From Psilocybe cubensis (Eukaryota), in the NCBI GenBank assembly GCA_017499595.2, contig CM039003.1, positions 3,162,001 through 3,226,000 on the forward strand: a stretch of 64,000 bases of DNA, in the 5' to 3' direction. Shown piece by piece: positions 12,852 to 64,000 of this stretch. The notes below the pieces were generated by a model. That model was given only the letters and a program-made list of their open reading frames with translations, did no database searches and was not told the DNA's origin. Position 1 is the first letter of the stretch, and the number at the start of each line of letters is the position of its first letter. The position numbers and the translations under genes were made by a program.

Positions 12852-13169
12852 AAAGACGATTGTGTAAATGAGTTCACAATTCCCATTCTTATTTTTGTTT
12901 CTCAAAATCTTCTGACTTTTTTTCTCGATTTCTTATCATCATCATCTTTAACCAGATATCTTTTGTTCCCTTGTTTTCTATGCTTTTTCTTATTTGTTGG
13001 ATGTATACTTAATAATTCCTCACTCGTTGATAACATTCTGATTTTTCCTTCAATGTTTTCCACTTGTTTTATAGTTTACCTTTTCAGTTGTCTGTTTTTT
13101 TTCTATCTCTGCTACATCATGCACATGCACAATGTATTATATAGAATCATCATCATTTTTCGACAGAAA

Positions 13170-13747: not shown

Positions 13748-13977
13748 ACCTGCCCTCTTTTTCGATATTGACTCCTGGTGTTTATTTATTGTTAGATTTT
13801 GAGTAACCTCCTATTTGCATATTTCACGCTATTGAAATGAACCCAAACTCTATGCTTAATGACCTTCAACATTTGAAGCTCCTGGAAAAATTTACTTTGA
13901 ACAACGACTGGCCAATGAAAAACTAGATATCCATGTATTCAATTCATCTTCACCAACTATTAAACAGTCTTTTACCC

Positions 13978-14752: not shown

Positions 14753-15343
14753 TATAAGCGAAAACTACACTGAGTGTTTAGCAGGAGGATGCGGCAAAAG
14801 TCATGTTCATAATATAAAGTTACGCGCAGTGTACTTATACGTTTGTGCTGTACGACGCTTCGAGAGACCTGCGTTCTATGTTTTTGTTCTTTCTTTGTAT
14901 GAAATACGCGAGTTCATGCTGGATGACAAACCCCATCACGGAAATATCGGATATGTTCACTTAGTAATAGTATTGATGCGGAGGTTTGGCGGAGGTTAGG
15001 GATTTGGTTAAACTACTTTAGTCTTGCTTCAGTCTCACTAATTCGTAATCAACCAGCATAATGAACGCATATACTACTCCGTGTAATCATCTTTCTTCGC
15101 ACAAGGTTGGATCTACGGTTTGTTACTTTTCTATTACACGGAATTCACCCGGAATTGGGCGCGACAACAGATTATATAAATATCGCGCAGAGAGCGCTGT
15201 GAGTTGCAGTACCCACGTTGTCACAAGGTCTGCTCAGACTGAAATTTTCATCTCACCAATGATAAAGGAAGAAAGAAATTTGCGATTATGATCACAATTC
15301 ATTATCTCCCAAATGTCCCGTTCAACAGAAGTCTTGTATTCCA

Positions 15344-16141
15344 ATGACGATTATCTTGTACGATATCCCGTCCACTCGCCCAGGAAATATATGGTCTCCC
15401 AACACCTTCAAGACAAGGTATAAAGTATCTTCGGTTATTATCAGCCTACAAAGTACCGATAGCTATCATAGATATTCTTTGAACCTCAAGGGCCTCGAAT
15501 TCACAACCGAATTCGTTGAGTACCCCGACATTGAGCCCGTTTGCAAAGAATTGGGCGTTAAACCCACCTCCAAGAAAGAGGATGGTACCGATCTCTACAC
15601 TTTGCCCGCCATCTACGACCCTTCTACAGGCGTATACGTCGCCGACTCCTTCCCAATCGCCCAATACCTTGACAAAACGTACCCCGACACGCCACCAATT
15701 TTCCCTCGCAACACGGTAGGCCTGCACCGCGCATTCACACTCTCATTCGCACAGCACATTGAACCCCTCTGGGATTTTATCATACCATACACATGCTTCA
15801 TGCTGAACCCGCGCAGCAGCGAGTATTTCCGACGTACAAGGGAGGCGTCGTTTGGAAAAACGATGGAAGAGCTTATTCCCAAGGGAGACGGAGCGGTCGG
15901 GAATTGGGACGTGCTCCGGGAAGGGTTTAGCAAGATCGCGTATGTATACTCGTTCACGGATGATATGGGGCCGTTCCTCATGGGAGACGAGATTACATGG
16001 GGCGATCTTTTGCTGTGTTCCTTCCTCTCGTGGATGAAGATCGTCTGGGGAGAGGACGACCAGAAGTGGAAGGATGTTATGAAATGGGACGGTGGAAGAT
16101 GGGAACGACTGTTCAACGATCTGCAGAAGTATGCAGTTTAG
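15344..16141 (+). CDS. GSTFuA-like glutathione transferase, paralog 4 (intron 15418-15471)
   Basis: Motifs WSPNTFKTR, VEYPDIE, YTLPAIYDPSTG, EYFRRTREASFG, WDGGRW; 54-nt in-frame intron. Confidence 0.93.
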   Translation: MTIILYDIPSTRPGNIWSPNTFKTRYKVSSVIISLQSTDSYHRYSLNLKGLEFTTEFVEYPDIEPVCKELGVKPTSKKEDGTDLYTLPAIYDPSTGVYVADSFPIAQYLDKTYPDTPPIFPRNTVGLHRAFTLSFAQHIEPLWDFIIPYTCFMLNPRSSEYFRRTREASFGKTMEELIPKGDGAVGNWDVLREGFSKIAYVYSFTDDMGPFLMGDEITWGDLLLCSFLSWMKIVWGEDDQKWKDVMKWDGGRWERLFNDLQKYAV

Positions 16142-16575
16142 GTCAAGATATATCGGTACGGGAACTGTATCTCGTACGAGACACTTGAGAGGTTCATAAG
16201 TTGACCCGAACTATGATACAGACTGAAAATTCAAATCTCAGCGACATTTTGAACAATTGCCAACCTGACTCTTGAACGCCATCTAATTTCCATATTTAGG
16301 TGAATGGTCCAGGAGTTGGGTGGTTGGTGTGTGTATCGCCGAATTCGAACCGTAGTTGGGTCGTGGATACAAGAGGTCGTTTTTAAGAGGGCTGTGCCAT
16401 GTGTTCCTGGTTTTCTCTACCACCTCTGATTCACTTTGACGGAATTAATTTAGCAAATAATTACCTCGAGTGTACCGCGAGGTATGTGACTCACAAGATA
16501 TCAATAAACGAGTCAGTGTGCACAGTGACGCTTAAGGAAATAAAATATGACAGCATGCAAAGATAGAAGAAGTAA

Positions 16576-17202
16576 AATCGCAACACACGAACCTATATAA
16601 CATCTCTGCGGGCTCTGTTCTCTTCGTTTGTTACGACAATACCATACTTACAGCATGGCCTTTTCATCCTCGCCTTCTGGCTCACAATATACCATGACCC
16701 GGAGAGAAATGTGCGATGTGAAACTATCGTACCTTCCTCAAAGTTGCCAGATGGAACAGGACCCAACTTCAGCTGTGAGCTGTTTGGATTTGACATCTCA
16801 ATGTCGCCAATGACGGTATTTCAGATATGGGGGGCATGGTCATTCAAAGATCGGCCGTGTGTGTACGATTTGGCCAACGATCCCGAGGGATGGTTCCCCT
16901 CTTCTAATCAAACGTCAATTGCGTGTGATGACCTACCTCCGCTTGGATGGAATGCTTTTGAGAAACAAACCCATTTTACATCGGATGAAAATCGAATCCT
17001 AGCGCGCCGTGAAAGACCCGGTCTGGCACATGTGCTCAAGCGATTTGAGCGTGACCTCATTTTGGCTGAACCTACTTTAAACGAAATATTCTATTTGAAG
17101 TGGAAGACGTATTTATCACTTGCCTATCAAGTCAGACGGCCCAGACGGATGCGCTACATACATATAACACCAGAGTTCGAACGACTGCTTTTAGAATTAT
17201 AG
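16576..17202 (+). CDS. Hypothetical protein exon or gene remnant between GST paralogs 4 and 5
   Basis: About 200 stop-free codons with protein-like composition (...FWLTIYHDPERNVRCE...WGAWSFKDRPCVYDL...). No convincing start or splice model found. Confidence 0.35.
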   Translation, partial: NRNTRTYITSLRALFSSFVTTIPYLQHGLFILAFWLTIYHDPERNVRCETIVPSSKLPDGTGPNFSCELFGFDISMSPMTVFQIWGAWSFKDRPCVYDLANDPEGWFPSSNQTSIACDDLPPLGWNAFEKQTHFTSDENRILARRERPGLAHVLKRFERDLILAEPTLNEIFYLKWKTYLSLAYQVRRPRRMRYIHITPEFERLLLEL

Positions 17203-17732
17203 GTTAAGCAAGGCTCCTAGTATTACGATCAAAGAATGGTATGCACTTACTTGCAGCGAGTAAACGACATACGACGCTCTATTTTATGTTTTATCGAACA
17301 AAGATGGACTTTCTCATAACCTCTGATGAGTGAATTCCACAACCACGGCGCGTTAAGCCGGGAATCGGTTAACGATAGGGCCCGAAATTTACCGGTAGCT
17401 GACTCATTCTCGTGCCGTCTGACAAACCAAAAAAAAAAATTCGAGTAGATGGAACCAGCTTTCGCGTCCTAGACGGTATGATTCAGATAGGACAACATCG
17501 AAGGATAAAAAAGAATATGGTGGGCCAAGGTAACAGCACATTACCTTCAGGTCTAAATGACGTTGCCAGGTGGATTAAAAAAATAGGGGATTATACGACA
17601 AATCAGAAATACCTTCGCATGGGTTCAAAACGATAACATCGTGGAGGGCCCACCTTGATTAAAGATGCCGAAATTGGGGAAAGATAAAAGGGTAGGACTC
17701 GAAAGAACGAATTTTATCCGAGCACTCCCACC

Positions 17733-18528
17733 ATGACGATAATCTTCTACGACATTCCATCCTCTCTCGAGGGCAATGCATGGTCTCCTAATACCTTCAA
17801 GACCAGGTAAGTGAATGGAAGTTGTCAACGTAGCACTGCTCACATACACAATTAATAGGTATACGCTCAACTTCAAGGGGATCCCATACGTCACCGAATG
17901 GGTTGAATATCCCGACATCGAACCCTTATGCAAGAAGCTGGGCATCAAAGCCACATCCAAAAATCCCGACGGAACGGACCACTATACTCTTCCCGCCATT
18001 CACGATCCTTCCACTGGAGTGTACATCGCAGACTCTGTCTTGATTGCGGAATACCTCGACAAGACTTACCCCGACACGCCTCCTGTTTTCCCCCACAACA
18101 CCCTTGGACTGCAGCATGCATTTGCTGCGGCGTTCAGTTCCTCTTTGAGCCCTCTCTGGGAGTTCATCCTTCCCGATACGTGTCTCGTTCTCAACCCCCC
18201 AAGCAAGGAATATTTCCGTCGCACGAGGGAAATCGCATTTGGCAAAACATTGGTTGAGCTTCGACCGAAAGGAGAGTATGCCGAGAAGCGATGGGCAGAA
18301 TTTAAAGCAGGTCTGGGGAAAGTAGACGAGTGGTATTCCAAAGTTGACGGACCTTTCCTGCTGGGAAGCGAAGTGTCTTGGGCTGATATCATTGTTGCCT
18401 CCTATTTGGTTTGGTTGAAGATCGTGTGGAAGGTAGATGGTGAGCGCTGGAAGGACGTCGCAGAGTGGCATGGTGGTAGATGGTCACGCATTATCGACAG
18501 TTTGGATGCATATACTGCGATTCATTAA
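17733..18528 (+). CDS. GSTFuA-like glutathione transferase, paralog 5 (intron 17807-17858)
   Basis: Reads MTIIFYDIPSSLEGNAWSPNTFKTR|YTLNFKGIPYVTEWVEYPDIE...EYFRRTREIAFG...WHGGRW. Confidence 0.93.
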
Positions 18529-19718
18529 GTGCAGTTCATTGTGTTATCATGACCCATTTCCCAGATTTTATATTGTTTGTGTCTGTGGTCGTGCTTGATC
18601 GTCGTCAATAAAGTCAAAGACTTTAGGTTTTCGGGAGTCAACATATCAGGTGTACAACTGTGTTAACTGTCACAATGTGCTAAACAGATACACAGAAAAA
18701 AAACATACATGAGAGCCAGAGACTGTCCCAAACACGGCGATGGGTCGTCTTTACATTTGACCCTTTGCCTTGATTAACTAGTCCGAACTAGAGAGTAATA
18801 AACACGCCCTCAACCCTTCCCACATTCAAACTACGTGGTGGGGGGTTCTTCCTGGCCAGGGAAACCTGCAAGAAGATTGGTTTAAGATATCTGATAGGCC
18901 ATTAGGACACACCGTTGCGATATGGATCTGGCCCTATTCATTGTTCGCAAAGGGGTCGTATCTAGATATTTCCAGGGGTAAAACGAGGCAATTTGCGCCG
19001 GAATTGCCGACCGACGACGCTAAATGGTGTTGGTTGTTGCCCGTCATAAAGGTACCACCAAAAAACAAACAAGGTCACGATCGGATGGCGAACGACGACA
19101 TTATGCATGTCAATTCGCAGATAGAATTGGTTTAACAGGCCCCGGGAGGCTCCCTAGTATCTTGTCCGGATTCTCGCGGGTTATAGTCTTTCTGGGTCGT
19201 GTCCAAAAAACTCGTTCATTGCGAGAAATTGACCCTACTTGGTTTGAAAGTCCGAAGATTACATAAACCGCTGAGTCGATCACCGGAGGCGAAGTTCATT
19301 TACGAGTCTTTGAACCATCTCTGGGTCAGCGCTGGAAGGAGGAGATTTCAAGGTGGCATGATATAGGGGACCCGCTTTCCCACCAGCTTGGAGGAAAAAT
19401 ATTCAGGTGTATATTGAGTGTCTTTAATACCCCGATGTTTCGCTACGAGGTTCAAATCGATCTGACTTTAAACGCCATCGTTCTTAGTTTTTGTAATTGG
19501 AGGATGACAAGATCTTGATCCTTTGCATGGCCTAGGATATCTCATCCCTAAATTTTCTGCGAGTGTCGTTTCTATTTTGGTGGCAATTGAATTCATGCAA
19601 TTCCAACACCGTCTGTTGGCCACAGTTTCGCACAGTGAGATGCAGTGAGAAGATTAATCTCATCTGAAAAGATAAAAGGGCGACGGGGAAACACGATATA
19701 CTAATCGCAGCTTCCAAC

Positions 19719-20554
19719 ATGACAATCATTTTCTTCGATCTCCCTTCCACCCTTCCGGGGAATGCTTGGTCTCCTAGTACTTTCAAGACAAGGTAAGAGT
19801 GGGATCATTAGCTTGAGATATTCATTCAACCAATTCATCCTCCATGACTCACAGATACACTCTCAACTATAAGGGAATTCCCTATACCACGCAATGGGTC
19901 GAGTACCCGGACGTCGAGGCTGTCAGCAAGAAATTGGGCATCAAGCCAACTACCACCAACCCCGACGGAAGCGATCACTACACCCTTCCTGCAATATATG
20001 ATCCTTCCACTGGCGTATACCTAGCGGATTCGATCTTGATTGCGGAGTACCTCGACAAGACCTACCCAGACACGCCGAAAATTTTCCCTCACAACACTGT
20101 TGGCTTACAACACGCCTTTAATGAAGCGCTGGAGACGGCACTGGACCCTTTGTGGGAGTTCATCCTTCCGGACACATGTCCAATCCTCAATCCTCGCAGC
20201 AATGTGTATTTCCGCCGCACCAGGGAGCATGCCTTTGGTATGACTTTGGAGGAGCTACGACCCAGTGGCGAACGTGCAGTGACAAGGTGGGAAGAGCTAA
20301 AGAAGAACTTGGAGAAGGTCGATGCATGGTATTCCAAGGTCGACGGGACGTTCATCCTGGGCAATAAAATCTCTTTCGCAGATATCGTTGTCGCCTCTCA
20401 CTTGATCTGGCTGAGGAAAGTTTGGGGAGATAGGCAGGAATGGAAAGATATTGCTGAGTGGAACGGAGGAAGATGGGAGAATCTCTTGAACGCACTCGAG
20501 AAGTATGCCTCTATCGACGTTGGGGAAGTGCAGAAACATATTTCGGCAATATAA
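19719..20554 (+). CDS. GSTFuA-like glutathione transferase, paralog 6 (intron 19793-19854)
   Basis: Reads MTIIFFDLPSTLPGNAWSPSTFKTR|YTLNYKGIPYTTQWVEYPDVE...YFRRTREHAFG...WNGGRW, with a short C-terminal extension relative to the other paralogs. Confidence 0.93.
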
Positions 20555-20699
20555 AGCTCGGCCGGGACGGTGGACACTGTTAGTAAGGGCTTAGTAACTT
20601 TGTAAACGGTGATCATAAAGCATCAGCGTCTGTTACTCATCACGATCACGAAAATGCCCTTTAAAGCTGGTTCAAAATTGACGAATCGTCTGCAATATC

Positions 20700-21500
20700 A
20701 TGATCGTTCTGTATGACATACCCTCCTCAGCTATAGGAAGCGCTTGGTCTCCGAATACATGGAAAACAAGGTAGGGGTCTGTGGAATCGACTCGGAAGGA
20801 ATTTATTGAAAAAGGGTTCAGATACTCGTTAAATTTTAAAGGACTTGCCTACGTGACTGAATGGGTTGACTATCCTGACATCGAAAGGCTTTCCAAGAAA
20901 TTAGGCATCAAGCCTACAGGACGAAAAACCCATGACGGCAGTGACAGATACACCCTTCCCGCCATATACGACCCGTCCACAGGCGTATACCTTGCCGATT
21001 CTATCCTCATCGCTGAGTACCTTGACAAGACATACCCGATTTCCTCTCCAATCTTCCCTCACAAAAGTGTTGGGCTACAAAATGCTTTCATGGTTGCGAT
21101 TGGCGCTATGGTTTCTCCTATCTGGCAGTTCACGGACTTGCCCGCGGTTGGGATTCTTAACGCTCCTAGCGCACAGTATTTTCGAACGGTGAGGGAGAGG
21201 GCACTAGGTCAATCCCTGGAGGACGCATCTCCGAAAGGACAGTATGCCATTGACCAATGGAAAAGGCTTCAAGAAAATTTCGGAATAGTCGCTAGCTGGT
21301 ATGCCAGTACTGATGCTATTGGGCCGTATTTCATGGGAGATGAGGTATCGTGGGTAGACATGGTTATGGCTTCTTACTTTTCGTGGTTGAAAGTCACCTT
21401 TGGCGAGAACGACACACGTTTTCTTGATATTATGAGGTGGGATGGTGGCCGGTGGCAGCGGTTATATCACGACATGCAGAGATTCGCGACGATTCAGTGA
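20700..21500 (+). CDS. GSTFuA-like glutathione transferase, paralog 7 (intron 20771-20821)
   Basis: Reads MIVLYDIPSSAIGSAWSPNTWKTR|YSLNFKGLAYVTEWVDYPDIE...YTLPAIYDPSTG...WDGGRW. Confidence 0.93.
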
Positions 21501-37051: not shown

Positions 37052-38975
<1,924 letters not shown>

Positions 38976-41483: not shown

Positions 41484-43430
41484 ATGTCTAACTGGTATCC
41501 AGGCTCGGCCTCTCCTCTGATGCAGTTTGCGAGCGAAGAGGGTAATCAACGGAACAGGGAGCCTTGGGATTATGAGATTATGGACCATGCCAAAGGAGAA
41601 TTCGGCGATAGGTATATCTGGGACGCGTCGTTTATAACAAGTTCTGAACTATATCTTCGCACTACAGGAGCCGTCACAATTCTCGTCAAGCCTCAATGCC
41701 TGCCATACACGACATGGATGGTGCCTTGTATGCGAACAACGGTTACCCTCAGACCCAGGGTCCTAATCTTTCGGGTGGACTATCAAGAAGTGGCGTTACA
41801 GCTCAACATATCCCAGTTACCCCACCTCAACATAGCAGTTATTTCGATTCCATTGTAGGGCAACAATATGTTGCCTCTCAACAGAGCTATTCCAACCCAT
41901 CTACGACTTTCGGCAAATATGACTACACCCATAACGCCTTAAGAAAGTCCCCTTATTCTACCAACGTTGCAAATGAAATCACAAATCACAGTGATGCCAC
42001 TGTGGATAAAGTCCCACTACACGTGCCATATACTGACACTGAATGGAAAGATCCTCTACAACGTTTGGGCGAAAAACGCCCCACCACGAGCGCTGGCGCT
42101 GCTAAGATCCAATTTCAACACCATATACAAGGGCTATCCCTGCCGTACAATGTCCCAGGACTGCCAGACACTCGTGACTCTGAACACACCACTGGCTATG
42201 TGCGTAATCACGATTCACAGCTCTTCCAGTCTACCAATAATATACTGAATTCTTCACACCAGGATCCTCAACAAGGAATTTCCCAGACCCCATTCAACAT
42301 CAACAGTACCGTTGCTGATAATGCAGCGATCTACTGCTCACCGGCGCCTTCTGCGCATATATCGCCGCGCGCAATTCCAAACATATTGAACCCAGATTTT
42401 TTCAATGCGAACAGTAATCCTCTTGCTACTTCCTCCCAGAGCCGCGTCTCAAACAACCAGGCTTCCCAAGGCCGGGCGCAGGTCAGTATACAGGGATCAC
42501 CCCTCCGAAATTTTTACTTATATGACGACGTTCAGCCAACCAATGGTCCTGCTTTCAACTCTACTGGATATAATGACTCCACACCGGATCCTCAACAAGG
42601 AATTTCCCAGACCCCATTCAACATCAACAGTACCGTTGCTGATAATGCAGCGATCTACTGCTCACCGGCGCCTTCTGCGCATATATTGCCGCGCGCAATT
42701 CCAAACATATTCAACCCAGATTTTTTCAATGCGAACAGTAATCCTCTTGCTACTTCCTCCCAGAGCCGCGTCTCGAACAACCAGGCTTCCCAAAGCGGGG
42801 CGCAGGTCAGTATACAGGGATCACCCCTCCGAAATTTTTACTTATATGACAACGTTCAGCCAACCAGTGGTCCGGCTTTCAACTCTACTGGATATAACGA
42901 CTCCACACCGCCTTCAATGACAGAAGATTCTGACGCTAGCGGCAGTTCAAGATACAAGAGTGGCAGTAGCAATAATCGCTCTGCTGCCTTAAGGTATGCT
43001 GTAACTCTTTTGAGCTTTATCATGTAATCTCACATCGTCAACACCTAGGGGCGGAATTCTCGCGGGATATAGTAACGCAGTTGCGTCTATCAAGAATTTC
43101 CCGCGCGCAAACACCGAAACCCAGTCAAGGTGCGGCTGGGATAATTGCAACATGGTGATCGACAACTCGTCTCGAGGTTTGGTAAAACACATCCTCGAAG
43201 TTCACGATACGGACACGACGGTGTCAGGACTGGATGTTAATTGCAGGTGGGGAACTTGCAATGGAACAACGTATTCTGGTGGCACGTCCTTTGTCAAGCA
43301 TATTAGAGGAACGCACCTGCGCCTTGAAGACATCATCTGCCCATACTGTGGTGTTGTCATTGCAAACGGGGTATCACCCACAAGGAAGCATATGCTTCGA
43401 CAACACAAAGACATACAACTACTTAAGTAA
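41484..43430 (+). CDS. Putative transcription factor: low-complexity N-terminus with an internal 108-aa duplication and three C-terminal C2H2-like fingers (exons 41484-41611, 41668-42993, 43049-43430)
   Basis: Both phase-2 GT-AG introns join in frame. Fingers: CGWDNC..HILEVH, CRWGTC..HIRGTH, CPYC..HMLRQH. Confidence 0.8.
42263..42910 (+). repeat. 324-bp direct tandem duplication (two near-identical copies) inside the CDS
   Basis: 42263-42586 versus 42587-42910; the peptide DPQQGISQTP...GYNDSTP repeats with 5 amino-acid differences. Confidence 0.95.
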
Positions 43431-46952: not shown

Positions 46953-49421
46953 ATGGCTCCATATTTCTTGCGCAACATCGTCCCCAGAAGGGAGACAAGA
47001 GCTGGAGCACGACCGTTGCTGACGGTTCTAAGAGAGCTGACATGGGTTCAATGGGCACTCTTCTTCTCTGGGTATGTTCCGTGTGCAGCTTCATTCCAGC
47101 GAACAATGTTGTGAGCCACTATGTACTGATAATTAACAGGTGGCTTGCGTGGACTTGCGATTCAATTGATTTCTTCTCCGTATCTCTGAGTGTAACGCAT
47201 CTCCAGACTCAGTTTAACAGAGACACCCACGATATCGTACGTTGCTGCTGCAGCTCCACAGTTGTTCCAGCTGATATATCCTGTTCGACTTTAATAGACG
47301 ACAGCTATCACCTTGACCTTGCTTTTCCGCTCGGTTGGCGCAGTACGTTCCATCCGATCTCACGATGGCGTTAATAAAACATGCATAATTCACACTGACT
47401 ACTAGGCTATCTTCGGCATTCTTTCTGATCGATACGGGCGTAAATGGCCCCTTATCTGGAATCTTATTCTCGTCGCAATTCTTGAACTTGGAGCAGGATT
47501 CGTTCAGACATTCAGACAGTTCCTCGCTCTCAGGTCATTGTTCGGAATTGGAATGGGGGGGATCTGGGGATTGGCCGCTTCGACCGCACTTGAGAACCTC
47601 CCAGTTGAAGCTCGTGGTATCGCGAGCGGCTTCCTTCAAGAAGGATACGCCGTTGGCTATTTGATTGCAGCAGTGATCAATCTTTTCCTTGTACCCGAAG
47701 TCAGTGCATCATGGCGCAGTTTATTCTGGACTGCATCAGGAATCTCTCTTTTCGCCGCCTTCATTCGCATGTTGCTGCCGGAGAGTGAGGTTTTCTTGCG
47801 AGCGAAAGCTGCTGATATGGCAAGCGGTAGAGATACCTCAAAGAAGACCAAGATATTCATACACGAGACGAAGGAGATGCTGAAGAGGCATTGGCTCTTG
47901 TGTATCTATTCCGTCCTCCTCATGACAGGTGCGTTCGCATACTACGATTATTTCTGTAGGAATGTATCGTTCCGCGATGCTTCCTGTGCCTCTTGATTTT
48001 TTAGGCATTGAGTTCCTTGACTTCCATAAATATGCTTGTCCCTAAGTTTCTAGCTTGACTGACACCACTTTCAGGGTTCAACTTCCTATCTCACGGATCT
48101 CAGGTACCTGCTCTCACATTGTCGCCAATAACGGTGTTCTAAATTAGGTTTTATAGGATCTTTATCCCACATACCTTACTGCCTCCAAAGGATTCACCTC
48201 ACATGACGCAACTGTTGCGACCATCATTGGCAACTGTGTAAGTGTGTTTAAAGCCAGCTGGCATTGAAGTTGATCACTGACACTTTCATTAGGGCGCGGT
48301 TGCGTAAGTTTTCCATTTGCAAATGGTGTATTGGCATCTGTGTCTTATTAAAACTTTTAGGGGTGGCGTCTTTGCCGGATGGTTGAGCCAGTATATCGGA
48401 AGGAGGTTAACAATTGTGTATGTGCTCTTGATTATTTCTTTGACAGTCCAATTCATTATGCTCCGCCCCCCTTCTTCAACGATTCATCTTCCTTCATCTG
48501 TTTCCATACTTGGAATGCTGATACCTTTATTGACCAGTATTCATTTACTTCTCATTGGTGGTATGTACCACTTCGCAAACTATTTTAGGCCACTCCGTTT
48601 CTCCGATATTAACATTCGTAGCTTTTATCCCTCTGTGGATTTTACCGTCCACCTTCAGTGCTCTCTCCGCAGGAGCCTTCTGCATCCAATTCGGAGTCCA
48701 GGGTGCATGGGGTGTGGTAGGTCACTGTTATCGGATGAACACGCATCATTTTTGCTGAAAATAAATAAATTCTAGATTCCCATTCAATTGGCTGAGATGT
48801 CACCTCCAGCATTCAGAGCAACCTTCCCTGGCGTTGCCTATCAGCTCGGAAATGTAATGAGTTTTCACACCTTGACATGTTCTCATGATTTAATGCCTTG
48901 GTTTATTTACCAGATGGTCTCCTCCGCCTCGGCCCAAATTGAAGCCAGTGCGTGTAATGTTTCTCCATTTCATGCAGAGACTGATCGACGCGATTTAGCT
49001 GGCGGTGATAACTTGCGAACCACGATCATCAAGAACGGGACGCCTACTGATGTCCCAGATTATGCAACGGTAGGCATTTCGCTGTGCTCGTTAATTCATT
49101 TGTTGATGCAAGGACCCCGCACCAGGTTCAAGGAATTTTGATTGGCGTCGTCGCTGCATTTACACTGATCATCACAATCATAGGCCCTGAGTATGTTTCA
49201 TCGAAATAACGACTTTGGACCAAGTAATTGACGCACAGATACGTAGGAACCATGGATCACACTTCGAGAAAGCAAAGACTGCATTTGAAGAGGGAGGTGG
49301 ACGCGGCGAGATGGTTCAAAATGAGGCAAATGACGGAATCAGAAGGGAAAGTGATAGTGAGTCAGGGGACGAAAAGCGAGGAAGTATCATCGAGGCGGAG
49401 AAAGCTGTGAACTCAATCTAA
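46953..49421 (+). CDS. JEN1: Jen1-family (MFS) carboxylate/lactate:H+ symporter; multi-exon
   Basis: Motifs WLAWTCDSIDFF, SDRYGRKWP, LFGIGMGGIWG, ALENLPVEARG. The Jen signature NxxSHxSQDxxxT is present as NFLSHGSQ|DLYPT; also AFRATFPGVAYQLGN. Confidence 0.93.
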
Positions 49422-49804
49422 GTGAAATTATTCCTTTTATGACCTTCGATGTACTATAGCTTGTACGAAATTTATGTGATTTTGATGTCCTAACTGCTCG
49501 TCATTTAACCGCCTCATGAGTCAAGTTTAGAGTTGTGCCAAAGTTGTGCTCTCTGCAGCTCTCTAGACAAAGGAAGGACCTAATTGCAACTACCTGCCGC
49601 TAGAGGTCATAAACATTACTTCAAGCCACTAACCAAGACAATACAGGATTCACTGGAAACGAACATGGAAAAATGGGCATGAAAAGCAAAGGTATGGTTG
49701 GTACTGTTGATAATGTTGGACTGTGGGAATATTTGTGGCTGTGTCTCAAAATTTGCCTGGCCGTCGTCGGCGTCGCTCCTTGGACGTGCCCGACGACGAC
49801 GACG

Positions 49805-51424
49805 ATGGCCGAATACGACTTATCGAAGACCATTATTCCATATCTCGACAGACATCTGTCCTTTCCTCTCTTAGCCCATCTTGCAGAAATTACCTTATTT
49901 CCAGCGGAACAAGTCCAACTCGCCCAATATGAATTAGCCAAGGGCACCAACATGTTCGACTATGCTGTGTCACTATTCCGGCAGATTTATCCAGGAAAAG
50001 AGATCCCTTCAGGTGAGGAATACTTGCTACATGCTTCAATTTATTGAAAGAACTAATGTTGGATCGGATCCTAGAGTTCGATGAAAAGCGAACCAATGCT
50101 GTTTCTACCAACGAGAGGTTGCAACAAGAGGCTCAGGCCGTATTGGATGTTATCGAAAACCCTGATGTAGCACAGGCTTTGCGACAGGACAAGAATCAGA
50201 ACTTGCAGTACCTAAAGGACAACTACAACGTGCGTCGTTATCGCATCATACCATCACATGTAAACTAAAACCTCCTGCAGCTCACCTTGGAACAAATCAC
50301 TGCATTGTACAACTTTGGCCAGTTCCAGTACTCATACGGAAACTACAGCGGTGCTGCAGACTACCTATATCACTTCCGTGTGCTCTCCACCGACAATGAC
50401 CTTAACACATCAGCGCACTGGGGCAAGCTTGCCTCGGATATCCTCACCGGTCGATGGGACGTTGCTCTCGAAGAACTCAACACCCTGCGTGATGCTATCG
50501 ATTCACGAAGCCCCGCATCGCTCCTTAACATACCCGAACCAGCTCTCGGGCAGTTGCACTCTCGTACATGGCTCGCTCACTGGTCACTCTTCGTGTATTT
50601 CAACCACCCAGAAGGCCGAACTCTTCTTCTCGAAACATTCCTCTCACCCACTTACCTCAACACCATTCAAACGTCGTGTCCATGGATCTTGCGCTATCTC
50701 GCCGCTGCCGCCATCCTTTCGCGCAAGGCCGCAGCCGGTGTAGCTGTCGGTGGAGCTGCGGCTACACCGCTGTCATCCCGTGTTCGTCATGCCATCAGGG
50801 AGGTAGTGAAGGTCATTCAGACTGAGGAGTACCAGTACAACGACCCAGTAACTTCTTTCCTCAAGGAATTGTATATCGAGTTCGACTTTGAGGCTGCGCA
50901 GCGGGAATTGACGCTGGCTGAGGAGGTTGTTGGAAACGATTTCTTCTTGAACGAATTCAAGGAAGAATTCTTGGATAATGCCCGATATCTTATCAGCGAG
51001 GCTTATTGCAGAATTCACCAAAAGATTGACATTGCGTACGCTTTTGACTCTTCGACTCATCACTCTGTGACTTATGATTTGACAGTAATCTCTCTGAACG
51101 CCTTAACCTGTCACAGGAGGAGGGTGAAAAGTGGATCGTCAACCTCATCCGAGAGACACGCATGGGTGCTGACGCCAAAATCGATTTGGAGAAGGTTTGG
51201 ACTCTATACTATTACCGTGGCATTAACGCATCTTCTGATCCTTCGTCTTGCAGAATGTTATCGAGATCAACCGTCCAGCTCTGCCCGTGTATCAATCCGT
51301 CATTGAAAAGACTCGCCAGCTCGCCGTGCGCACGCAGGCCCTGGGCGTCACCATTACCCGCGCCGGCCAACAGGCCCAGCAGCAGCCCAAGCAGGATACC
51401 AGAGAGCAGGTTCCTGTTGCTTGA
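49805..51424 (+). CDS. INT6: Eukaryotic translation initiation factor 3 subunit E (PCI domain)
   Basis: Motifs [94 protein letters not shown]. Confidence 0.95.
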
Positions 51425-51807
51425 TTTTTTTTTCTTCATTTCTTTTCGATATTCTAGTGTTTTTGGAGTACTAGAAGATCGTTTTGTATTTTCTACGTTG
51501 CTAGCGATCAGCCAAAAAACGAACGTTCGACTTTCGCATTTTTGTAGAAAGGCGGCGCATCGACAGGCTTGTCTCGCTAGGTTTATCGTATACACTTAAC
51601 CCCACTGTGGTGCGAGACGCACTAGGGTATCCACACAGGCCCAACAGCGCTTGCAAAAACAGGCGTTAAGGCGTTAAGGACTTAGGTGAGCTGGCTTATG
51701 CCTGTCAGTCGACCCCATTATATGAAATTATCCAGAAGAGTCAACAAGGCACTACATATCGACGTGGTCTAAACACATGCGGCGCGTGCAAGCTACTCTG
51801 ACCCTTC

Positions 51808-54170
51808 CTACTCTTTGGACGTTTTCTGTGTGGAACTTGTAACATCGTCGGGATATAGCTAACAAATTGCACGGAGTCAGCGCAATCCTAAGCACATCCG
51901 AGAATACTCACCTTTCCTGGATTGAAAATCCCAAGGGGGTCTATTGTCTTCTTGATTGTTTTCATAAGCTGAACTGTCCCTTCGCCGAGCTCTCCTATGA
52001 GATATTCTTTCTTTCCAATACCTACCCCATGCTCTCCGGTACCTGAAAGAAGGCATCTACCTCAGCATTGCTTACAAAAGAAGTCAATTAAGTGGGCTTG
52101 TGCATACAAGTCCCATCCAGCGCAATCGCGCGCTTGACCATCCGGTGCACCAGCTCTTTTGCGCGCTCCATCTCTTCATCCGTTTTGAACAGAATCAATG
52201 CATGGAAATTGCCGTCCCCAACGTGCCCGACAATCGTAGACACAAGGCCTGCGTTCTTGATGTCTTGTTTGGTTTCATACACCAGTTGTGGGAGCTTCGA
52301 CACAGGGACGCTAAAAAGAGGAGGTATAGTCATTTATTAGCAATGATGGAATAGCAACCGATGAAAAACCCTACCAAACGTCAGTCGGCCAGCCTTTGCT
52401 GCCGTCTACCAGTGCAAGTCCAGCATAGTGCGCATTCTTCCTGTCAGCCCAAAGTTCGTCTGCTTCATTAGCATCGCGCGCAAGGCGGAATCCCGTCCCA
52501 CCGTGTTTCTCAGTTATTTTCTTCACGATCTCCGCGGTTTCACGCAGGGAGGCGGACGCTGATGGAGAAGCAGAGCCGATGGTAGCTGGGCCCTGGAACT
52601 TGAAAAACAGGCTGTCTTTTTCGGGGTAAACCTTTTTGGACATTCCGAATTTGTTGATAGCGGACATAAAGACATCATCCACCAACTCGACGCATTCTAT
52701 AAGACGCAATCAGAGGGAGGTATGAAAGCAGTGTGATAAAGGACCTACGTATACCAACGCCAGCCTGCATCACATCCATGACGGCTTCAGTGGCTTTCTG
52801 TACATTCGGGAAATGAACAACAGCAACGGTCGTTGGCAAGACTGGCGCCAGTCGAATAGTCACTGGCATGGCAAACTGTATCTGCTTGAACGTATGTTTA
52901 GATGATAAATAGAAAATTACCTTCAGTGATTATGCCGAGAGTCCCCTCAGCGCCGATAAACAGTTTGGTGGTATCAAACCCTGCTGAAGACTTTCGAGAA
53001 CGTTGTCGTGTTTTAATCACTTCTCCAGATGGCAGTACCACCGTCTATTGGTCGTGAATCTTATTGCCACGGGCCCATAATACAGACTTACAACGTTGAG
53101 GAACCATTCTCCTTTGGCGGTTCCATATCTAACTGCGTTCGCTGAACTTGATTTCAGCCTCAATGAACATGTTCAGTTGGGCAGAACATACTTCCTGAAC
53201 AACCCGTGCTCAACATGCCGCCTATGGTTGCCCCTGGGGCAGGATCGATCTTTGATTGTCAATATAGAGACCTGATACAAATACAAGCTGCTCACTGGGA
53301 AAAAGAGAGGGATTCCTAGCGACGCAAGTCAGCCGAAAGCGTAACACAGTGGACATGAAAATTACCCTTTTCGCGAAGAGTCTCATTTATATCCATCCAC
53401 CTCACTCCCGGTTGACAGACAAGGTCACCGTCTTTCTCTGTATCGAAAATAGGATCAGTGTCGTATTTTGAGATGCGGAGACGAACCGTTGATTTCGATA
53501 ATATGATCCATGTTCCCCATATCAACACATATCCCCCCAGTGCTGTGCTAAAGAAAAGTTATAAATTTAGGCAGCATCATTGAATGTTGACCTACTCCAC
53601 GATAATGGCCTTCCAGACTTGTGGCCCCAGAATATGCAGTAATTGGTACCCGGTACTTTGTCGCTATGTTGACAATCTTCACGACATCCTCAGTAGATTC
53701 AGGATATACAACGACACTGTGCCTCATGCCTAAGTGTATGTTTAGTGGCAGTTTCCGGAAACTTTATCTTATAACCTACCCGGGTGATGATCATTTGCTG
53801 AGAATCCATGGTCATGAAGGTCATCAGGGTCAGTGGATACTTTACTTCCTGCTCCAAATATTTTTTTCAAATCTGAAATTGCATTCTGAATATCGTCCGA
53901 GGATCCAAACTGTGGGGTCTCCGACTTCAAATAAGGGGAGTCTGTAAGATAAACAGCTGTTCCAAACCCTAGTGAGGCGCTAATGAGTACTGATAAGGCG
54001 ACCTGAAGGCCGGAGAAACGATGGAACCGAGGTGTAGGATTGGATATGGTGTGCACTGATGAAAAATATTTCGCAGGCCGTGTAGCATTTAAACTTCTAT
54101 GAGGTGGGTAATGTTTCATTGACAGGTAAAGAGATGAGCGTAGGCCTCGAGCGAGCATCGTGCTAGACAT
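51808..54170 (-). CDS. DLD1: Mitochondrial D-lactate dehydrogenase (cytochrome), FAD-linked VAO/PCMH family, paralog A; multi-exon
   Basis: Arg/Ser-rich presequence and a hydrophobic segment, then [66 protein letters not shown]. Confidence 0.9.
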
Positions 54171-55684
54171 ATTGAATATATTCCCTGAAGCAAGGAACAG
54201 CAAAGGAACAGTGGCAATGGCAGACTGTTGACAGTGGGATGATCGGGGTAAGTTATCTGCTGAAGTGAACTTTCTGACTGAGTTTCTGGTATTTTGAGCG
54301 AAACCAACGAGGGTAAAGTAGGTACAATGTACTAAGGCAACGATAAAGAGAAGGACAGATGATCTAAGTCATGGATAATTCAAAAGCAAGGGAGTCATCG
54401 CCGAGAGTCGCCCTTCAGTCACGGGTGTCATACCAGTCATATGATAGACGTTACGTAAGCGTCATGCAAACCGTTACCCTTCGGTGCAACACGGTACACT
54501 GAACTGATTCAAAACCAAATCAAAACCACATGCTTTTTACCTGAAATCTGTTCACTATGTGCGGGGCGACAAGAAACGGGGCGCTTCAAGCTCAGACTAC
54601 GGATCCCTGCTGATTAGGGACTCGTTGGTTGTCAAAAATGTGGGGCTAGGTGACAGGGTTTCAATAACCAGACGACTGGATGCCCCGGGAGGTCGCTAGC
54701 AAATTAAAGAATGTTATTCACAAGGTGTGTTTGCTTGTTCGTGCGTCTGTCTGCTTCTCCGAATGGTTAGCTTATCTCTCCTTGTATTTCGAATTGTCTT
54801 TGAAATTTCCTCTGTATTGCAGCATTGGATGGTTTGGCTGAAGATTTTTCCCTCTTTCTGGAACTGCAGAACCGATGTGATATTTTTGTGGAATGGTGGA
54901 ATACGGCTTGTAGGTGCGATACGGTTATAGTCGAGTCTCTGTTGTTTTCCAGAACTTCACATATCTTGGTGCGGAAGGTGAATTTTTTAATTCTATTCGC
55001 TCTTTTACTTTTTAAACATTTGAATGGTCGCCATGGAGAACTATGAATGGCAAAGCTGCTGGTCGAAGGTTAAGCTGGGACTTGTCGCAAGTTCTTGTCT
55101 CGAACGGATCTATATCTGCGGATAGTTCTACGACCTGTGATCCAGGTTTGGACCTCATTTCCGTGTTATTGATTGATATAGCACAAGTTGTCTTCGATCT
55201 ACCCGTCATTGTTCAAATCGCTGCTTACTGTACATCGCAAGTCCTCCCTCGAAAGGTCGACACGAGAAGACTGTTTCAACTTCATGGGAATCAAAGAACA
55301 ATTCGATTAGAGTATATGGACGGCATGACTCAATATTTAACCTCCTTGTCTCAATTCTCATGGATTCTGTCATGAGCTCGCCTTCGGGAAGTGCCATTCC
55401 CGGGAAGCTCCACTTATAGCAGGAATCCATCACCATCTATAGATATACTCTCCGAGAAATTTTCAACTTCATGGGGCAACTTCAAAGTAAAACGCAGCAC
55501 TGTTTGTTTTTGGTCTTGGCTGCGCCTATACTTTCTCATCGGACGCTCGTTTCATCATTGAAGGTACTCACGTTCGCTTCATAGTTAATGAATAGGTGAG
55601 TATAAAACCACCACAAGCCACAGGGCTGCCTCCCTAACCTGTTTTTCAGGCCTCAAAGCAGACCCAATACATTGGGAGACCATA

Positions 55685-58044
55685 ATGCGAAACACGCATG
55701 CGCTTCTTTCACTCGCCCTGACCGCCGGCTCAGTCGCTGGTGCAGGCTGGAATTTTGTTCAGAACGGAACTTCAGGTGTCTTAGCTCTCGAAGCGATATT
55801 TGTGTCACCAACGCTGGCCATTTTCTTCGACCGTGCAACCAATGACCCACTCACGATCAACGATCATCCCGCATGGGGTGCTTTGTGGAACATTGAAACC
55901 AACACCGCAACCGCTTTGGATGTGAAATCGGACACTTTCTGTGCATCGGGAGGGTTCCTGAGTAACGGCACTATGGCACGTATTTTTTCGCGAAGATGAC
56001 GAGTTTGATAAGAGATAGACGCTGAGGTCTGCCTTTTTAGGTCAGTGTTGGTGGACACATCCCCGTTATTAGTGCGGCGGTTGATGGCCGTATGGCTATT
56101 CGTTTGTTTGAGCCCTGCGCCGACCCCGCAGGCAATAATTGCACCCTCTTCGAAGACCCAGAAAACCTTCATCTTGCAGAGACAAGATGGTACCCTTCTA
56201 GTCTGAGGATTCCCGACGGCTCTTTGGTATGACCTTATTTTGCATAAGCTCTCTACAGCCGCTGAATTGATGTTAGATGATTGTCGGAGGAATTCACGAG
56301 CGCACACCGTTTTACAACGTAGACCCAGTCAACAACTTTGAATTCTTCCCCCCAAAAGATGGCGGAGTTCCTCGACCATCTGCCTTCCTTGAAAGGAGTC
56401 TACCTGCCAATCTTTTCCCAAGGTAAGATATGGTTAACGATTTTCCAGACCAAACAAATTGACTTACCGTCATGATTGCAGAGCTTTCCTCCTTCCCGAT
56501 GGTCGCGTATTGATGATCGCGAATAATCAAACCATCATATATGACATTGAACAGAATACTGAAACAATCCTGCCCGACATCCCTAACAAAGTGCGCGTGA
56601 CAAATCCTTTCGATGGAACTGCCACTCTTCTCCCTCTTTCCCCGCCCGATTTTACTCCTGAAGTCCTGGTTTGTGGTGGAACAACTACAAGCGACCAAAT
56701 CCAACCCGCAAATCTATCGTCACAGGACCCAGCGACCAGTCAGTGCAGTAGGATGACCATAACTCCTGAGGGTATCAAGAAAGGCTGGGAGGTTGAGCAC
56801 ATGCTTGAGCCTAGAATTATGCCTGAGATGATTTTGTTGCCCAATGGAGAGGTATTGATCGTAAATGGAGGCAAGACCGGCTACGCTGCATTCGGAACTG
56901 TCCCCGATGCTGTAGGGAACCAGTCCAACGCCGACCACCCTGCGTAAGTGTGTTTTTGCTTGCTGTGGCTGACAGAGATCGTTCTAAAGCCCCAGATAAT
57001 GTTGTTGCTTCCTTCGTGGTTACTGACCACACCTTCTCAGATTCACCCCCTCAATCTACACACCCAGCGCCCCTCTAGGCAAGCGAATTAGCAACAAGGG
57101 AATGCCCACCACGGACATTGCTCGGTTGTACCACTCCGTCGCCAGTCTAACACCTAATGGGTGAGAATACGAACTCATGCTGTCATCTGTCCTAAAAATT
57201 GACACTAATGTATTCTCGTCCGGGTCTCACAGTAACATTCTCATTGCCGGGTCAAACCCCAATGGCGAGGTAGTGAATGGAACTAAATTTGGAACGTTCG
57301 TGCGATTTTTCTTTTCCGTTTCTGCGTTTGTAGGGTGCTGATATGTCGTCTGTTCTTTGACATTTGTCGTGCATAATCTTGTATGGAACCTACAGTGAAT
57401 TCCGCGTTGAATATCTCAACCCGCCATTCATGTCTGAGGCCCGCCCCGTTCTCTCTAACGTTCCCAGCAAAATTGCTTTCAACAAGCGCTTCACCATCGA
57501 CGTCGATGTGCCTCAACATCTCCCGGCATCTTCCATCAAAGGTACGCCCCTCTTATTCTAAAACGCTGGCCACGTTTTCTGGTAGCTCAGACACGCCAAT
57601 CGTGTGTCTACATTGAGTGCCACGGCTCTTTAAACTCTTTTTAAAATTGTTTTTACCCTTTCCTGTGACATTTGGCTGACATCGAATTGCCAGTGGCCCT
57701 CATGGACCTTGGCTTCTCCTCGCACGCTTTCCATTCAAGCTCCCGCCTTGTCTTCATGGAAGCCACTCTCTCGCCCAATCGTAAATCGCTCTCCATTCTC
57801 AGTCCTCCAAACAACAAGATTTACCCACCAGGTCCTGGTAAGCCGATGTCTCCTTTAATAGCCGTATGGTGGCATGTAGGACAGTTCGCTAATTCTTTGA
57901 TCATATTTTCTCTCCTATCTCTTTCACACTGGATGAACAGCATTTATTTTCGTGACTATCGACGATGTTACGAGCGCGGGAACCCGTGTAATGGTTGGAA
58001 ACGGGCTTCCGCCGCCTGTGGCCGATCAAGGAGTTCCACTCTAG
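55685..58044 (+). CDS. glx: Secreted glyoxal oxidase / copper radical oxidase (CAZy AA5_1); multi-exon
   Basis: Signal peptide. All five active-site residues are visible: Cys (DTFCASG), Tyr (RWYPSS), Tyr-His (RLYHS), His ([10 protein letters not shown]). Also AGSNPN and YPPGP. Confidence 0.92.
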
Positions 58045-58202
58045 AGGACACTTACCATTGCAAGTCTCTCTTTTGATTTGAGTATGTTGCCGCCAGCGGA
58101 CATTTGTATTAATTATTTCTTGAATTTATAAATAAAAAGAGACGTATATTGTGCAAGTGGTATCGTGAAGGTCGTCAATCGTGAAGTAAAGTAATCTACA
58201 CA

Positions 58203-60624
58203 TTACTTCTGGTTCGTGTCAGGATGATGTTTTGCTCCGGATAGGTTTGATTCTGGGTACAGCTAGATGTTGGTTGAATAAACTTGCAAGTGATTCAGAT
58301 CTAACCATGTTCTCACCTTTCCAGGATTGAAGAGCCCCAGAGGGTCAATTGCTCGCTTGACTGTCTTCATGAGGTCGACTGTTCCCTGACCAAGTTCTTC
58401 TACAAGATATTTCTTTTTTCCTATACCAACACCATGTTCTCCGGTGCCTAAAGCAGTGAAGTAAATCAGGAGTCAGCAAGTTGAAAATGACATGTCACTG
58501 ACAAGTTCCATCCATTGCTATAGCCCTGTGTACAATCCTAGCTGCAGCCTTCTGGGCAATCTTGAGCTCATCGTCGTTTGTGAAAAGTAAAAGGGCGTGG
58601 AAGTTCCCGTCTCCGACATGACCGACAATTGATGAAAGAATGCCAACGTTCTCTAGATCTTTCTTTGTTTCGTACACCAGTTCAGGAAGTTTGGAAACAG
58701 GAACACTGAAATTTGTAGGCGGGTAATAAGTAGATGCAGATATTTCGCGCTATAACCGAAAGTGGACACGAACCAGACATCGGTAGCCATTCCTCTGCTG
58801 CCTTCAATCAATGAGAGGGCAGACCAATATATATTCTTCCTATCCATCCAAAGATCTTCGGCCTCTTTCTCGTTTCTCGCAAATGAGAAACCTGTGCCGC
58901 TGTGCTTGGCCACGACCTTTTCAACAGCCTTTGCAGTGTCCTTCAATGAGGCTTGAGATGGTCCCTGGAACTTGAAAAAGAGCGAATCACGTTCCGGCCA
59001 CTTTCGTATAGACATGCCGTAGTTGTTGGTCGCTCGCATAGAGGTGGCGTCCAGAAGCTCTACGCATTCTATGTGAAAGAGAACTTGATGAGAGCCCCCG
59101 AGAAGTTTGCAAAGCAAAGGACGCACGAATCCCTAAGCCTTGATTGATAACCTCTGTAGCAGCTGCCGTGGCAGATTTAACATCGGGGAATTGCACAACA
59201 GCCACGCTAGTCTGCAGCACGGGAGCCAGTCGGATGGTCACTGTACATGATAAGTCATTATTCAGTAATGGCGAGTTTAACTCGTACGTTCTGTTACAAT
59301 TCCTAACGTCCCTTCGGCTCCAATGAAGAGCTTCGTGATATCGAATCCAGCGGCAGACTTTCGGGATCGGCTCCGAGTCTTGATCACTTCGCCAGAAGGT
59401 AAAACGACAGTCTATTACGATAACGGAGGCTTAGTCTAGAGAAGAAGAGATTTGCCTGGTGAGGTAAACTTACCGCATTCAAGAACCACTCTCCTTTGGC
59501 AGTTCCGTATCTGACAGCATTCGCTGAATAGAAGCTGCTTTCAGACCTGTGTCATATTCATTGGAAGCTACATACTTCCTGAGCATCCAGTGCTCAACAT
59601 TCCGCCAACTGTGGCCCCCGGACCTGGATCAATCTAAATAAAGATGTATTCAGTCGTCATACGTTGACGAGACGTAGATCTCTCGTACAGGGAAAAACAG
59701 TGGAATCCCTATCGCGACACCAGTCAGTCCAAAGTCATGGCCACTATCGCTGAGCCTCACCTTTCTTCTTGAGCATTTCGTTGATATCCATCCATTGTGC
59801 GCCTGGTTGACACACAAGGTCGGAATCCTCCTCTGGGACCGTATATGAGTCTTGATGTGCCCTCAAAAAGAATCCTTATTTACCGTGAATCTCCAACACT
59901 TTGTCCATACGGCCAACATCTACACAGATACCACCCACGGAATGCTATTTTTATCAAAGAGCTGGGGCTTTAGCTCGAGAATCAAGGAAAAGAAGAGCCA
60001 TCTGGGGACTCACCCCCCGGAAGTGGCCTTCCAGACTTGTGGCTCCAGAGTAGGGTATTACAGGCATGCGGTATTTGGTCGCAATTTTGACAATTTTTAC
60101 CACGTCCTCTGTCGACTGCGGATATACAACAACACTATGCAGCATAGCTATGTAGATGTTAGCTTTTCGAACGCCGTAACATGAAGGGGCTTACTGGGAT
60201 GGTAGTCGTTGTCGGAGAATCCATGATGGCGGAGGTCCTCAGGGTCCGTCGACACAGCGTCAGGCGTCAGAGACGCGTGCAACTCGTCAATAGCATTCTT
60301 GAAGTCACTAGGAGATCCAAACTTGGGGGAGTCAGGAACACTCTGCGACGAATTCCGCTTTGCATTCTGCTCAGACAAGAAGAACCCCAAGCTTCCGCTT
60401 GCTACAGACACAGCGATGACCACAGCCGCCTTCCCGAATCCTCCCCGATGCACATTTTTGTCCTCGGCGTGCGAACTCGCGCTATGTCCGGACGTGGTAT
60501 TTGTAGAATAGAGTCGTGGGGTGGCTGTCGCCGTAGCCAGTCGCCAGGCGCTGCAATGGCCACGCACATGAGCAGCGCGACTCCATGTACGCACACCGGT
60601 GCAAAGGCTGGGCCAAAGAGGCAT
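58203..60624 (-). CDS. DLD1: Mitochondrial D-lactate dehydrogenase (cytochrome), paralog B; multi-exon
   Basis: Presequence and TM segment, then [60 protein letters not shown]. Intron layout appears to match paralog A. Confidence 0.9.
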
Positions 60625-63243: not shown

Positions 63244-63474
63244 ATGACAGTTCTTCATGGATGGCACCGTGGCGAACGTCTGGTGCGCCAGCACCTAGGA
63301 TTCGATAAAATCCCTGCTACCAACTATCTCTACTCCAACATCGCTGGAGAAATGCCTGATCAGCATTCGACGTTCTATTGTACCCGCCTTCACTTTCTTC
63401 CTGTTTGTGTTCTAGACGACGAACAACGTCCTTGGGGCTCTGTTCTGGTCGGAACAAATGGAACTCCAGGCTAT
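63244..63474 (+). pseudogene. 5' part of a pyridoxamine 5'-phosphate oxidase-like FMN-binding oxidoreductase gene, truncated by an insertion
   Basis: MTVLHGWHRGERLVRQHLG...MPDQHSTFY...FLPVCVLDDEQRPWGSVL matches my recollection of this fungal family's N-terminus. Coding character stops abruptly at GTPGY, where CACTG and repeat arrays begin. Confidence 0.7.
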
Positions 63475-64000
63475 CACTGCGGGCGCCGACCGCTGTAAGT
63501 TAAACATACAGCAGAAAACTTACATGTCTTATGTAAGTTTCGCTGTAAGTTCGACATACAGCACACGTGTATGAAAAACAAACAGTCGGCAAAGACATAT
63601 TGTGTTTGGTGGCTGTATGCCGACCAAACACAATTGCTGTAAGTAGACTGTAAATAGAATAAACACCGAGATTACACAATTTCTTTTTGTCCGGTGTTAG
63701 TATAATATACACAATTGCTGTAAGTCATACAAACAGCACTTGTGTAAGTAAAACATACACACAAAGAAAACAAATTGTGTATGTCATACTTACACAATTC
63801 CTGTAAGTAAGTGCTGTAAGTTAAACATACACCTGAACTTACAGTAATCGACTCGCTGAGCGAGTCGACAAGCGCGCGAAGAATTCGCATTTTTGGCGCG
63901 ATGTCGACTCGCAGACGATGATAACACGATGGCATGCGTCGTTCTGGCGACTCGCTGCCCTTTGAAAAATCTCGCAGTCGTCAATGTGTAGTGCGCGATT
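63475..64000. mobile_element. Left end of a CACTG-terminated (CMC/EnSpm-like) element with subterminal repeats, running off the window
   Basis: CACTGCGGGCGCCG at 63475, followed by many GCTGTAAGT / AAACATAC repeats in both orientations (about 63490-63845) and GACTCGC motifs. The matching right end is not seen. Confidence 0.7.

Follow-up and report, generated by a model that had tools for sequence, protein, structure and literature searches.

Glyoxal oxidases (GLOX) supply hydrogen peroxide (H2O2) to peroxidases (PMC10282164, PMC4101180), their substrates include glycolaldehyde, glyceraldehyde, and glycerol (to glyceric acid), and glyoxal exceeds methylglyoxal in the culture fluid of Phanerochaete chrysosporium (PMC11611005). 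Tandem glox genes arose by local duplication in Pycnoporus (PMC4101180), and orthologs of GLOX and of Jen-family transporters are developmentally regulated in fruiting bodies (PMC10282164), so that other roles exist for both. The dehydrogenase LDHD carries a hydrophobic side pocket from which hydrophilic substrates are excluded (PMC10589216). Among Jen transporters, a Gln in helix 5 marks the dicarboxylate-type Jen2/Jen3 and Phe-Ser marks Jen1 (PMC4335979, PMC8085920), and the Jen proteins of Aspergillus are termed lactate transporters (PMC13608414). Here, we describe a locus of Psilocybe cubensis (assembly GCA_017499595.2, 46.6 Mb in 21 contigs) at which members of these three families are neighbors: within a window of 64,000 nucleotides (contig CM039003.1, positions 3,162,001 to 3,226,000; G000:C6:3162001-3226000), a glyoxal oxidase gene (GLX-a) lies between two dehydrogenase genes (DLD-A and DLD-B), with a Jen-type transporter close by. 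An initial annotation of this DNA had proposed a module in which GLX-a, both dehydrogenases, and the transporter would be under common regulation, serving to remove methylglyoxal and to recover lactate and pyruvate. The comparisons reported here favor a plainer account, namely that this is probably an inherited chromosome neighborhood of known enzymes, in which each does what is usual for its family and each gene is regulated separately. Every part belongs to a known family. As for the arrangement, a full-text search, with subscription journals mostly outside it, returned no report of DLD/GLX/Jen clustering, the available part of PMC10218983 included.

The five core genes are real, intact, spliced, and transcribed. 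In window coordinates, the Jen/SHS-family carboxylate transporter of the major facilitator superfamily (46953-49421, + strand; Pfam Sugar_tr/MFS_1, helix motifs, spliced contigs, and a 100% match named carboxylic acid transporter) is followed by the housekeeping gene eIF3e (49805-51424, +; Pfam eIF3_N, E 4.5e-21; spliced contigs) and by DLD-A (54170/54158-51808, -), a D-2-hydroxyacid dehydrogenase of the LDHD/Dld1 type linked to flavin adenine dinucleotide (FAD), whose 13-exon model yields a product identical to database protein P0001. GLX-a (55685-58044, +) has nine exons and encodes 553 residues identical to database protein P0370. DLD-B (60624-58203, -) is an old paralog of DLD-A, with 336 of 487 aligned residues identical and 13 exons and 12 introns, the exon sizes matching those of DLD-A. 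The gene order and strands first annotated were thus borne out by the spliced models: the transporter stands one gene from DLD-A, GLX-a diverges head-to-head from DLD-A across a common upstream region (54171-55684, 1514 bp; start codons 1514-1526 bp apart, read initially as about 1.5 kb), and it converges with DLD-B, the two stops lying ~160 bp apart by model coordinates. All five genes were covered in two runs of RNA-like contigs (X1 and X2, one study), which report presence and not level; GT..AG joints are displayed for the transporter and eIF3e, with 31 further joints, and exon-bounded pieces of DLD-A, GLX-a, and DLD-B occur among the contigs. Such joint coverage fits the proposed module, as do the family functions. 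Elsewhere, the genome holds a third DLD (contig C3), a second Jen (C11), and 11 AA5-like matches.

The family labels given initially (LDHD/Dld1, AA5_1, and Jen) all hold, while "Jen1" and "D-lactate" are names of families and not specificities. GLX-a comprises Glyoxal_oxid_N and GO-like E-set domains, with neither a WSC nor any further domain in the 553-residue model, and groups with proteins named glyoxal oxidase. Its Cys86, Tyr148, His166, Tyr392, His393, and His482 are the same in all 24 aligned rows and were equated by motif and spacing, the P. chrysosporium sequence being outside the alignment, with the reference GLOX residues Cys70, Tyr135, His153, Tyr377, His378, and His471 (PMC11611005). 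By these sequence marks, GLX-a is a true AA5_1 glyoxal oxidase, and its hydrophobic N-terminus predicts secretion. Separately, an intronless AA5-like frame of 722 codons, with 45% identity to GLX-a of P. cyanescens, was seen on another contig (G000:C3 ~1859384-1861549; L027:7384-9549).

DLD-A combines FAD_binding_4 and FAD-oxidase_C domains, and its best structure match, over residues 91-557, is mouse LDHD (E 1.3e-108), ahead of glycolate oxidase (1.6e-54) and D2HGDH (8.4e-32); the distance between the first and last of these values led us to reject a D2HGDH identity. DLD-B was placed with the LDHD type through its 69% identity to DLD-A. Catalytic subsite A (the equivalents of Arg347, His398, His405, Glu442, and His443) is conserved in all three DLDs. 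Subsite B differs in each: at the positions of LDHD Trp351/Ser365/Ile407/Val101, DLD-A has His/Pro/Leu/Leu and DLD-B Tyr/Ala/Leu/Leu, and at the first three of them the C3 copy has Leu/Thr/Phe. Both pockets at the locus are therefore unlike that of LDHD, which speaks against the proposed module, and with His in place of the hydrophobic Trp the specificity of DLD-A for D-lactate is unproven. The first 50 residues of the DLDs hold five to seven Arg/Lys and zero Asp/Glu (composition only), the N-terminus of DLD-A being Arg-rich, and this may point to mitochondrial import of DLD-A and DLD-B. The C3 copy has a coding exon interrupted by a 597-bp element resembling a miniature inverted-repeat transposable element, with 37-nt inverted arms (G000:C3:2489374-2489970; L003:1929-2525); 40 full-length copies at 100% identity genome-wide point to a very recent burst, and the gene model is mis-spliced in its middle around the element, which lengthens its branch in trees.

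The pocket of DLD-A also bears on a different alternative, in which selection in dark-spored agarics would keep DLD-A and GLX-a together as a head-to-head pair acting one after the other on polar 2-hydroxy aldehydes: outside the cell, GLX-a would oxidize fragments of the glyceraldehyde or glycolaldehyde type with release of H2O2, and the His-pocket DLD-A would then oxidize the resulting polar D-2-hydroxy acids in mitochondria. This would be consistent with the residues of the DLD-A clade, where 17 of 20 rows combine His with Pro at Trp351/Ser365, given that the hydrophobic pocket of LDHD bars hydrophilic substrates (PMC10589216), and with the acceptance of glycolaldehyde, glyceraldehyde, and glycerol as GLOX substrates (PMC11611005). 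However, a single residue is the ground for proposing a changed substrate, and His occupies the Trp351 position in 54 of 87 aligned rows, many from species without a GLX link seen among the matches listed, so that it is a widespread mushroom state and not special to this locus.

For the transporter, the Jen helix-7 signature NXX[ST]HX[ST]QDXXXT is intact (residues 264-276 of P0242). In helix 5, Gln165-Glu166 stands at the position of ScJen1 Phe270 and the Jen1-type Phe/Leu is absent, as in the homologs listed, 120 of 120 of which have QQ or QE; the column was found via the Gln-Gln of PkJen2, ScJen1 not being among the 73 aligned rows. From these motifs, the protein is predicted to be a carboxylate importer whose range more likely includes dicarboxylates, a further point against the module as proposed. 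The protein may nevertheless carry lactate, because the column was set without ScJen1 and because Jen proteins of Aspergillus are termed lactate transporters, a usage that itself favors the module (PMC13608414).

Whether these genes travel together was read from contigs, locus tags, and accession numbers of homologs (30 proteins looked up, counts by eye), with orthology taken from trees and homolog sets being the best 120 of 136, 615, and 893 matches; all counts hold among the matches listed. Such numbers suggest order and not strand, and some JGI-type accession series are maybe not positional. Of 11 related species with orthologs of both genes, four, from three genera, have DLD-A and GLX-a at successive numbers. 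The two genes share one contig at unresolved spacing in two (Flammula alnicola and Pholiota molesta) and are apart in five, by 32 tags in Agrocybe pediades and on different contigs in Pholiota conissans, Gymnopilus junonius, and two Panaeolus. Among 17 more distant species, DLD and GLX are consecutive in none, and only Agaricus bisporus has them on one scaffold, ~150 numbers apart, with Jen also there, 316 numbers from DLD. The three glyoxal oxidase genes of that species sit at every second accession number, with one unknown gene between neighbors, which suggests that a unit of two genes was repeated.

The transporter behaves differently from the pair. It lies within two genes of a DLD in 0 of 34 other species, sharing a contig with DLD in 10 and occupying a different one in 24 (many contigs are short), and where spacing could be read, in nine of the 10, it was 6, 7, 10, 10, 13, 42, 66, 212, and 316 numbers. 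This weighs against the proposed module, whereas a spacing of 3-11 numbers between transporter and GLX in seven relatives is in its favor: 3-4 in P. cyanescens, Galerina, Flammula, A. pediades (to GLX-b, a second glyoxal oxidase described below), and P. conissans (to GLX-a), 8 in Hypholoma, and 11 in Cyclocybe. Hypholoma keeps the same order as P. cubensis (Jen 24395, DLD-A 24402, GLX-a 24403, GLX-b 24408-9). Hence the microsynteny check gave a split answer, the DLD-A/GLX-a adjacency recurring in relatives and the transporter drifting over 6-316 numbers or to another contig. The DLD, GLX, and Jen families form an ancestral segment undergoing shuffling, in which only DLD-A/GLX-a is tight, and this within a single clade, where the share of species lies between a minority and one half.

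An internal control for the meaning of such adjacency comes from sequence just beyond the window. There we found GLX-b (G000:C6 ~3267052-3269182, +), which the initial annotation had missed, 49 kb downstream of GLX-a and identical to it at 396 of 546 residues. Directly before GLX-b lies the remainder (G000:C6 ~3264415-3266283; L021:2415-4283) of an oxidoreductase gene with PNPOx-N/FAD/NAD-binding domain matches (OxR), whose 5' part is at 63244-63474 (+) of the window. OxR is split by a 38.9-kb CACTA-like element (left end at 63475-64000, whole element to G000:C6:3264414) with inverted ends of 1665 bp that are 98% alike, a 3-bp target repeat, and an internal Transposase_21 match. This element makes up almost the entire gap between GLX-a and GLX-b, so that with it set aside the order reads Jen, eIF3e, DLD-A(-), GLX-a(+), DLD-B(-), OxR(+), GLX-b(+). 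A second OxR copy lies at C6:2966369 with no GLX match nearby, and just past GLX-b two GH11-CBM1 xylanase frames that hardly differ run in opposing directions (L022:4467-5249 and 8309-9091).

In a metagenome scan of 36 GLX loci (18 groups), OxR lay directly upstream of GLX in eight loci from five groups, all GLX-b-like, i.e., in five of the seven GLX-b-like groups with at least 2 kb upstream (OxR loci L030, L032, L034, L042, and L061). It was truncated or frame-broken in four of those five groups, which are paralogous and seemingly from one organism, in which OxR and GLX were co-duplicated at least four times, and was apparently whole in one Agrocybe-like locus. OxR thus stands beside GLX-b in three lineages and is broken in two, P. 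cubensis with its split copy among them. Adjacency at this locus can therefore persist without selection, and since a dispensable OxR was kept beside GLX over a comparable distance, the recurrence of DLD-A/GLX-a weighs less, as judged from one control that is not a background rate. The idea that OxR is a true functional partner of GLX was itself weakened, OxR being broken in two of three lineages and absent from long Agaricaceae-like loci. DLD, Jen, and eIF3e were found in 0 of the 36 loci, the sole two GLX-a-like ones having 475 and 1025 bp upstream, a stretch too short to reveal the pair, and no DLD was seen in the ~7.8 kb upstream of OxR in two groups.

In DLD trees (FastTree with 87 rows; a quick IQ-TREE with 36 rows; short and unnamed matches left out), sisterhood of DLD-A and DLD-B was rejected (p-AU 0.018, 36 rows), and with it a recent tandem duplication. 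In the GLX tree, GLX-a and GLX-b each have a supported clade of their own that spans the same families. Both the DLD split and the GLX split are older than the Crassisporium/Panaeolus/Strophariaceae radiation. The two pairs are similarly diverged (336 of 487 and 396 of 546 residues identical) and the minus/plus pattern is repeated, which suggests one duplication of a DLD/GLX stretch, although on these sequences a joint event has about even odds.

Taken together, we think it reasonably likely that the arrangement is inherited microsynteny and that the closeness of DLD, GLX, and DLD reflects an old duplicated block kept in some relatives. Several points count against this. The consecutive pair is found in Hypholoma sublateritium, Crassisporium funariophilum, Cyclocybe aegerita, and Agrocybe chaxingu (the latter two being close kin), where the transporter has moved away from it, and a pair kept while the transporter moves is the pattern that selection on the pair would also give. 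Only the best 120 matches per family were compared, so a species counted as having the genes apart may hold neighboring copies further down the list, and Jen is no more than 13 numbers from DLD in 5 of 34 species, including Lyophyllum shimeji and Macrolepiota. Some OxR stops counted as breaks may sit in introns, and the homolog search was seeded with DLD-A, which left the DLD-B orthologs of relatives outside the tree set. In favor of the account, the 8- and 10-mers common to the promoters showed no excess over shuffles (z -1.7 to +1.8), the highest z-score belonging to the unlinked Jen copy, but this is a weak test of low power. The same promoter result speaks against the serial DLD-A/GLX-a pair, as does the fact that other genomes give numbers only, not strand or true adjacency. 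In favor of that pair, the two numbers follow each other in 4 of 11 relatives although other neighbors have moved; we regard it as unlikely.

Pathway logic bears mostly on the methylglyoxal module. Extracellular GLX on the one hand and intracellular glyoxalase plus DLD on the other are alternative fates of methylglyoxal, parallel sinks and not a chain. Glyoxalase I and II are absent from the locus, with one match each in the genome, on C2 and C3. Glyoxal, moreover, is the more abundant of the two aldehydes in P. chrysosporium culture fluid (PMC11611005). With the drifting transporter, its Jen2-type residue, and promoters without excess words, the claim of a co-regulated C3 module that includes the transporter is not supported; we consider it distinctly improbable and infer that co-regulation is absent.

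A class II heme peroxidase that had escaped the first annotation (37110-38975, 3' end approximate, -; PF11895 match and translation) lies ~8 kb from the transporter and ~16.7 kb from GLX-a. Its manganese site, which we take to be Glu/Ser/Asp without a catalytic Trp, would give it the look of an atypical short manganese peroxidase. The gene raises the alternative of a loose ligninolytic neighborhood, in which the two GLX would feed H2O2 to the peroxidase, the Jen2-like transporter would handle dicarboxylate chelators, and the DLDs would be bystanders. The helix-5 residue and the role of GLOX as H2O2 donor to peroxidases (PMC10282164, PMC4101180) agree with it. Yet the association was noticed after the fact, PF11895 has 16 matches genome-wide with two in this region, and a peroxidase occurs in the flanks of 0 of 36 metagenome GLX loci (many short), so we give this reading little credence. 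Elsewhere in the window, an array of glutathione S-transferase (GST)-like genes surrounds a Na+/H+ exchanger (~1900-21500; two GST frames and the exchanger Pfam-confirmed), and a low-complexity long frame with an internal repeat precedes a weak zinc-finger-like frame (41648-43430).

Under the inherited-neighborhood account, secreted GLX-a would oxidize small aldehydes and yield H2O2 for peroxidases, mitochondrial FAD/metal enzymes DLD-A and DLD-B would oxidize D-2-hydroxy acids (D-lactate probably included) to 2-oxo acids, and the Jen protein would import carboxylates, with dicarboxylates more likely among them. The DLD-GLX-DLD sandwich would most likely have formed when a stretch with divergent DLD and GLX genes was duplicated in tandem long ago, giving units of DLD-A with GLX-a and DLD-B with OxR and GLX-b, with local shuffling afterwards moving the transporter around. 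Read in this manner, the locus is ordinary, an old block of genes for known enzymes whose order changes slowly, and it cautions that a metabolic story is easily fitted to such a block. Were DLD-A and GLX-a co-regulated after all, they would offer a genetic handle on the aldehydes used in vivo by glyoxal oxidase and on the substrates of the His-pocket dehydrogenases of mushrooms, and a true serial pair would point to a physiological glyoxal oxidase substrate and to an uncharacterized dehydrogenase specificity.

Among known systems, Colletotrichum reportedly has a head-to-head alcohol oxidase/peroxidase pair (AA5_2 with AA2) whose co-expression is said to have been shown and whose partner is a secreted activator. 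The likeness is a copper radical oxidase gene sharing its upstream region with a partner, and the difference is that the P. cubensis partner is a probable mitochondrial dehydrogenase. With LDHD (PDB 8JDC) and yeast Dld1, all three DLD copies share the catalytic subsite A residues, while they differ from these enzymes in the side pocket and in being three paralogs in one genome. The transporter has the helix-7 signature of the yeast Jen1/Jen2 (SHS) symporters intact, and departs from yeast Jen1 in having Gln-Glu in helix 5, similar to Jen2/Jen3, instead of Phe-Ser. For the oxidase itself, the closest systems are the AA5_1 enzymes P. chrysosporium GLX1 and the tandem glox of Pycnoporus cinnabarinus, with which GLX-a shares the Cys-Tyr cofactor, the copper ligands, and a nearby tandem paralog; unlike the P. 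cinnabarinus tandem, the P. cubensis copies are parted by DLD-B and OxR.

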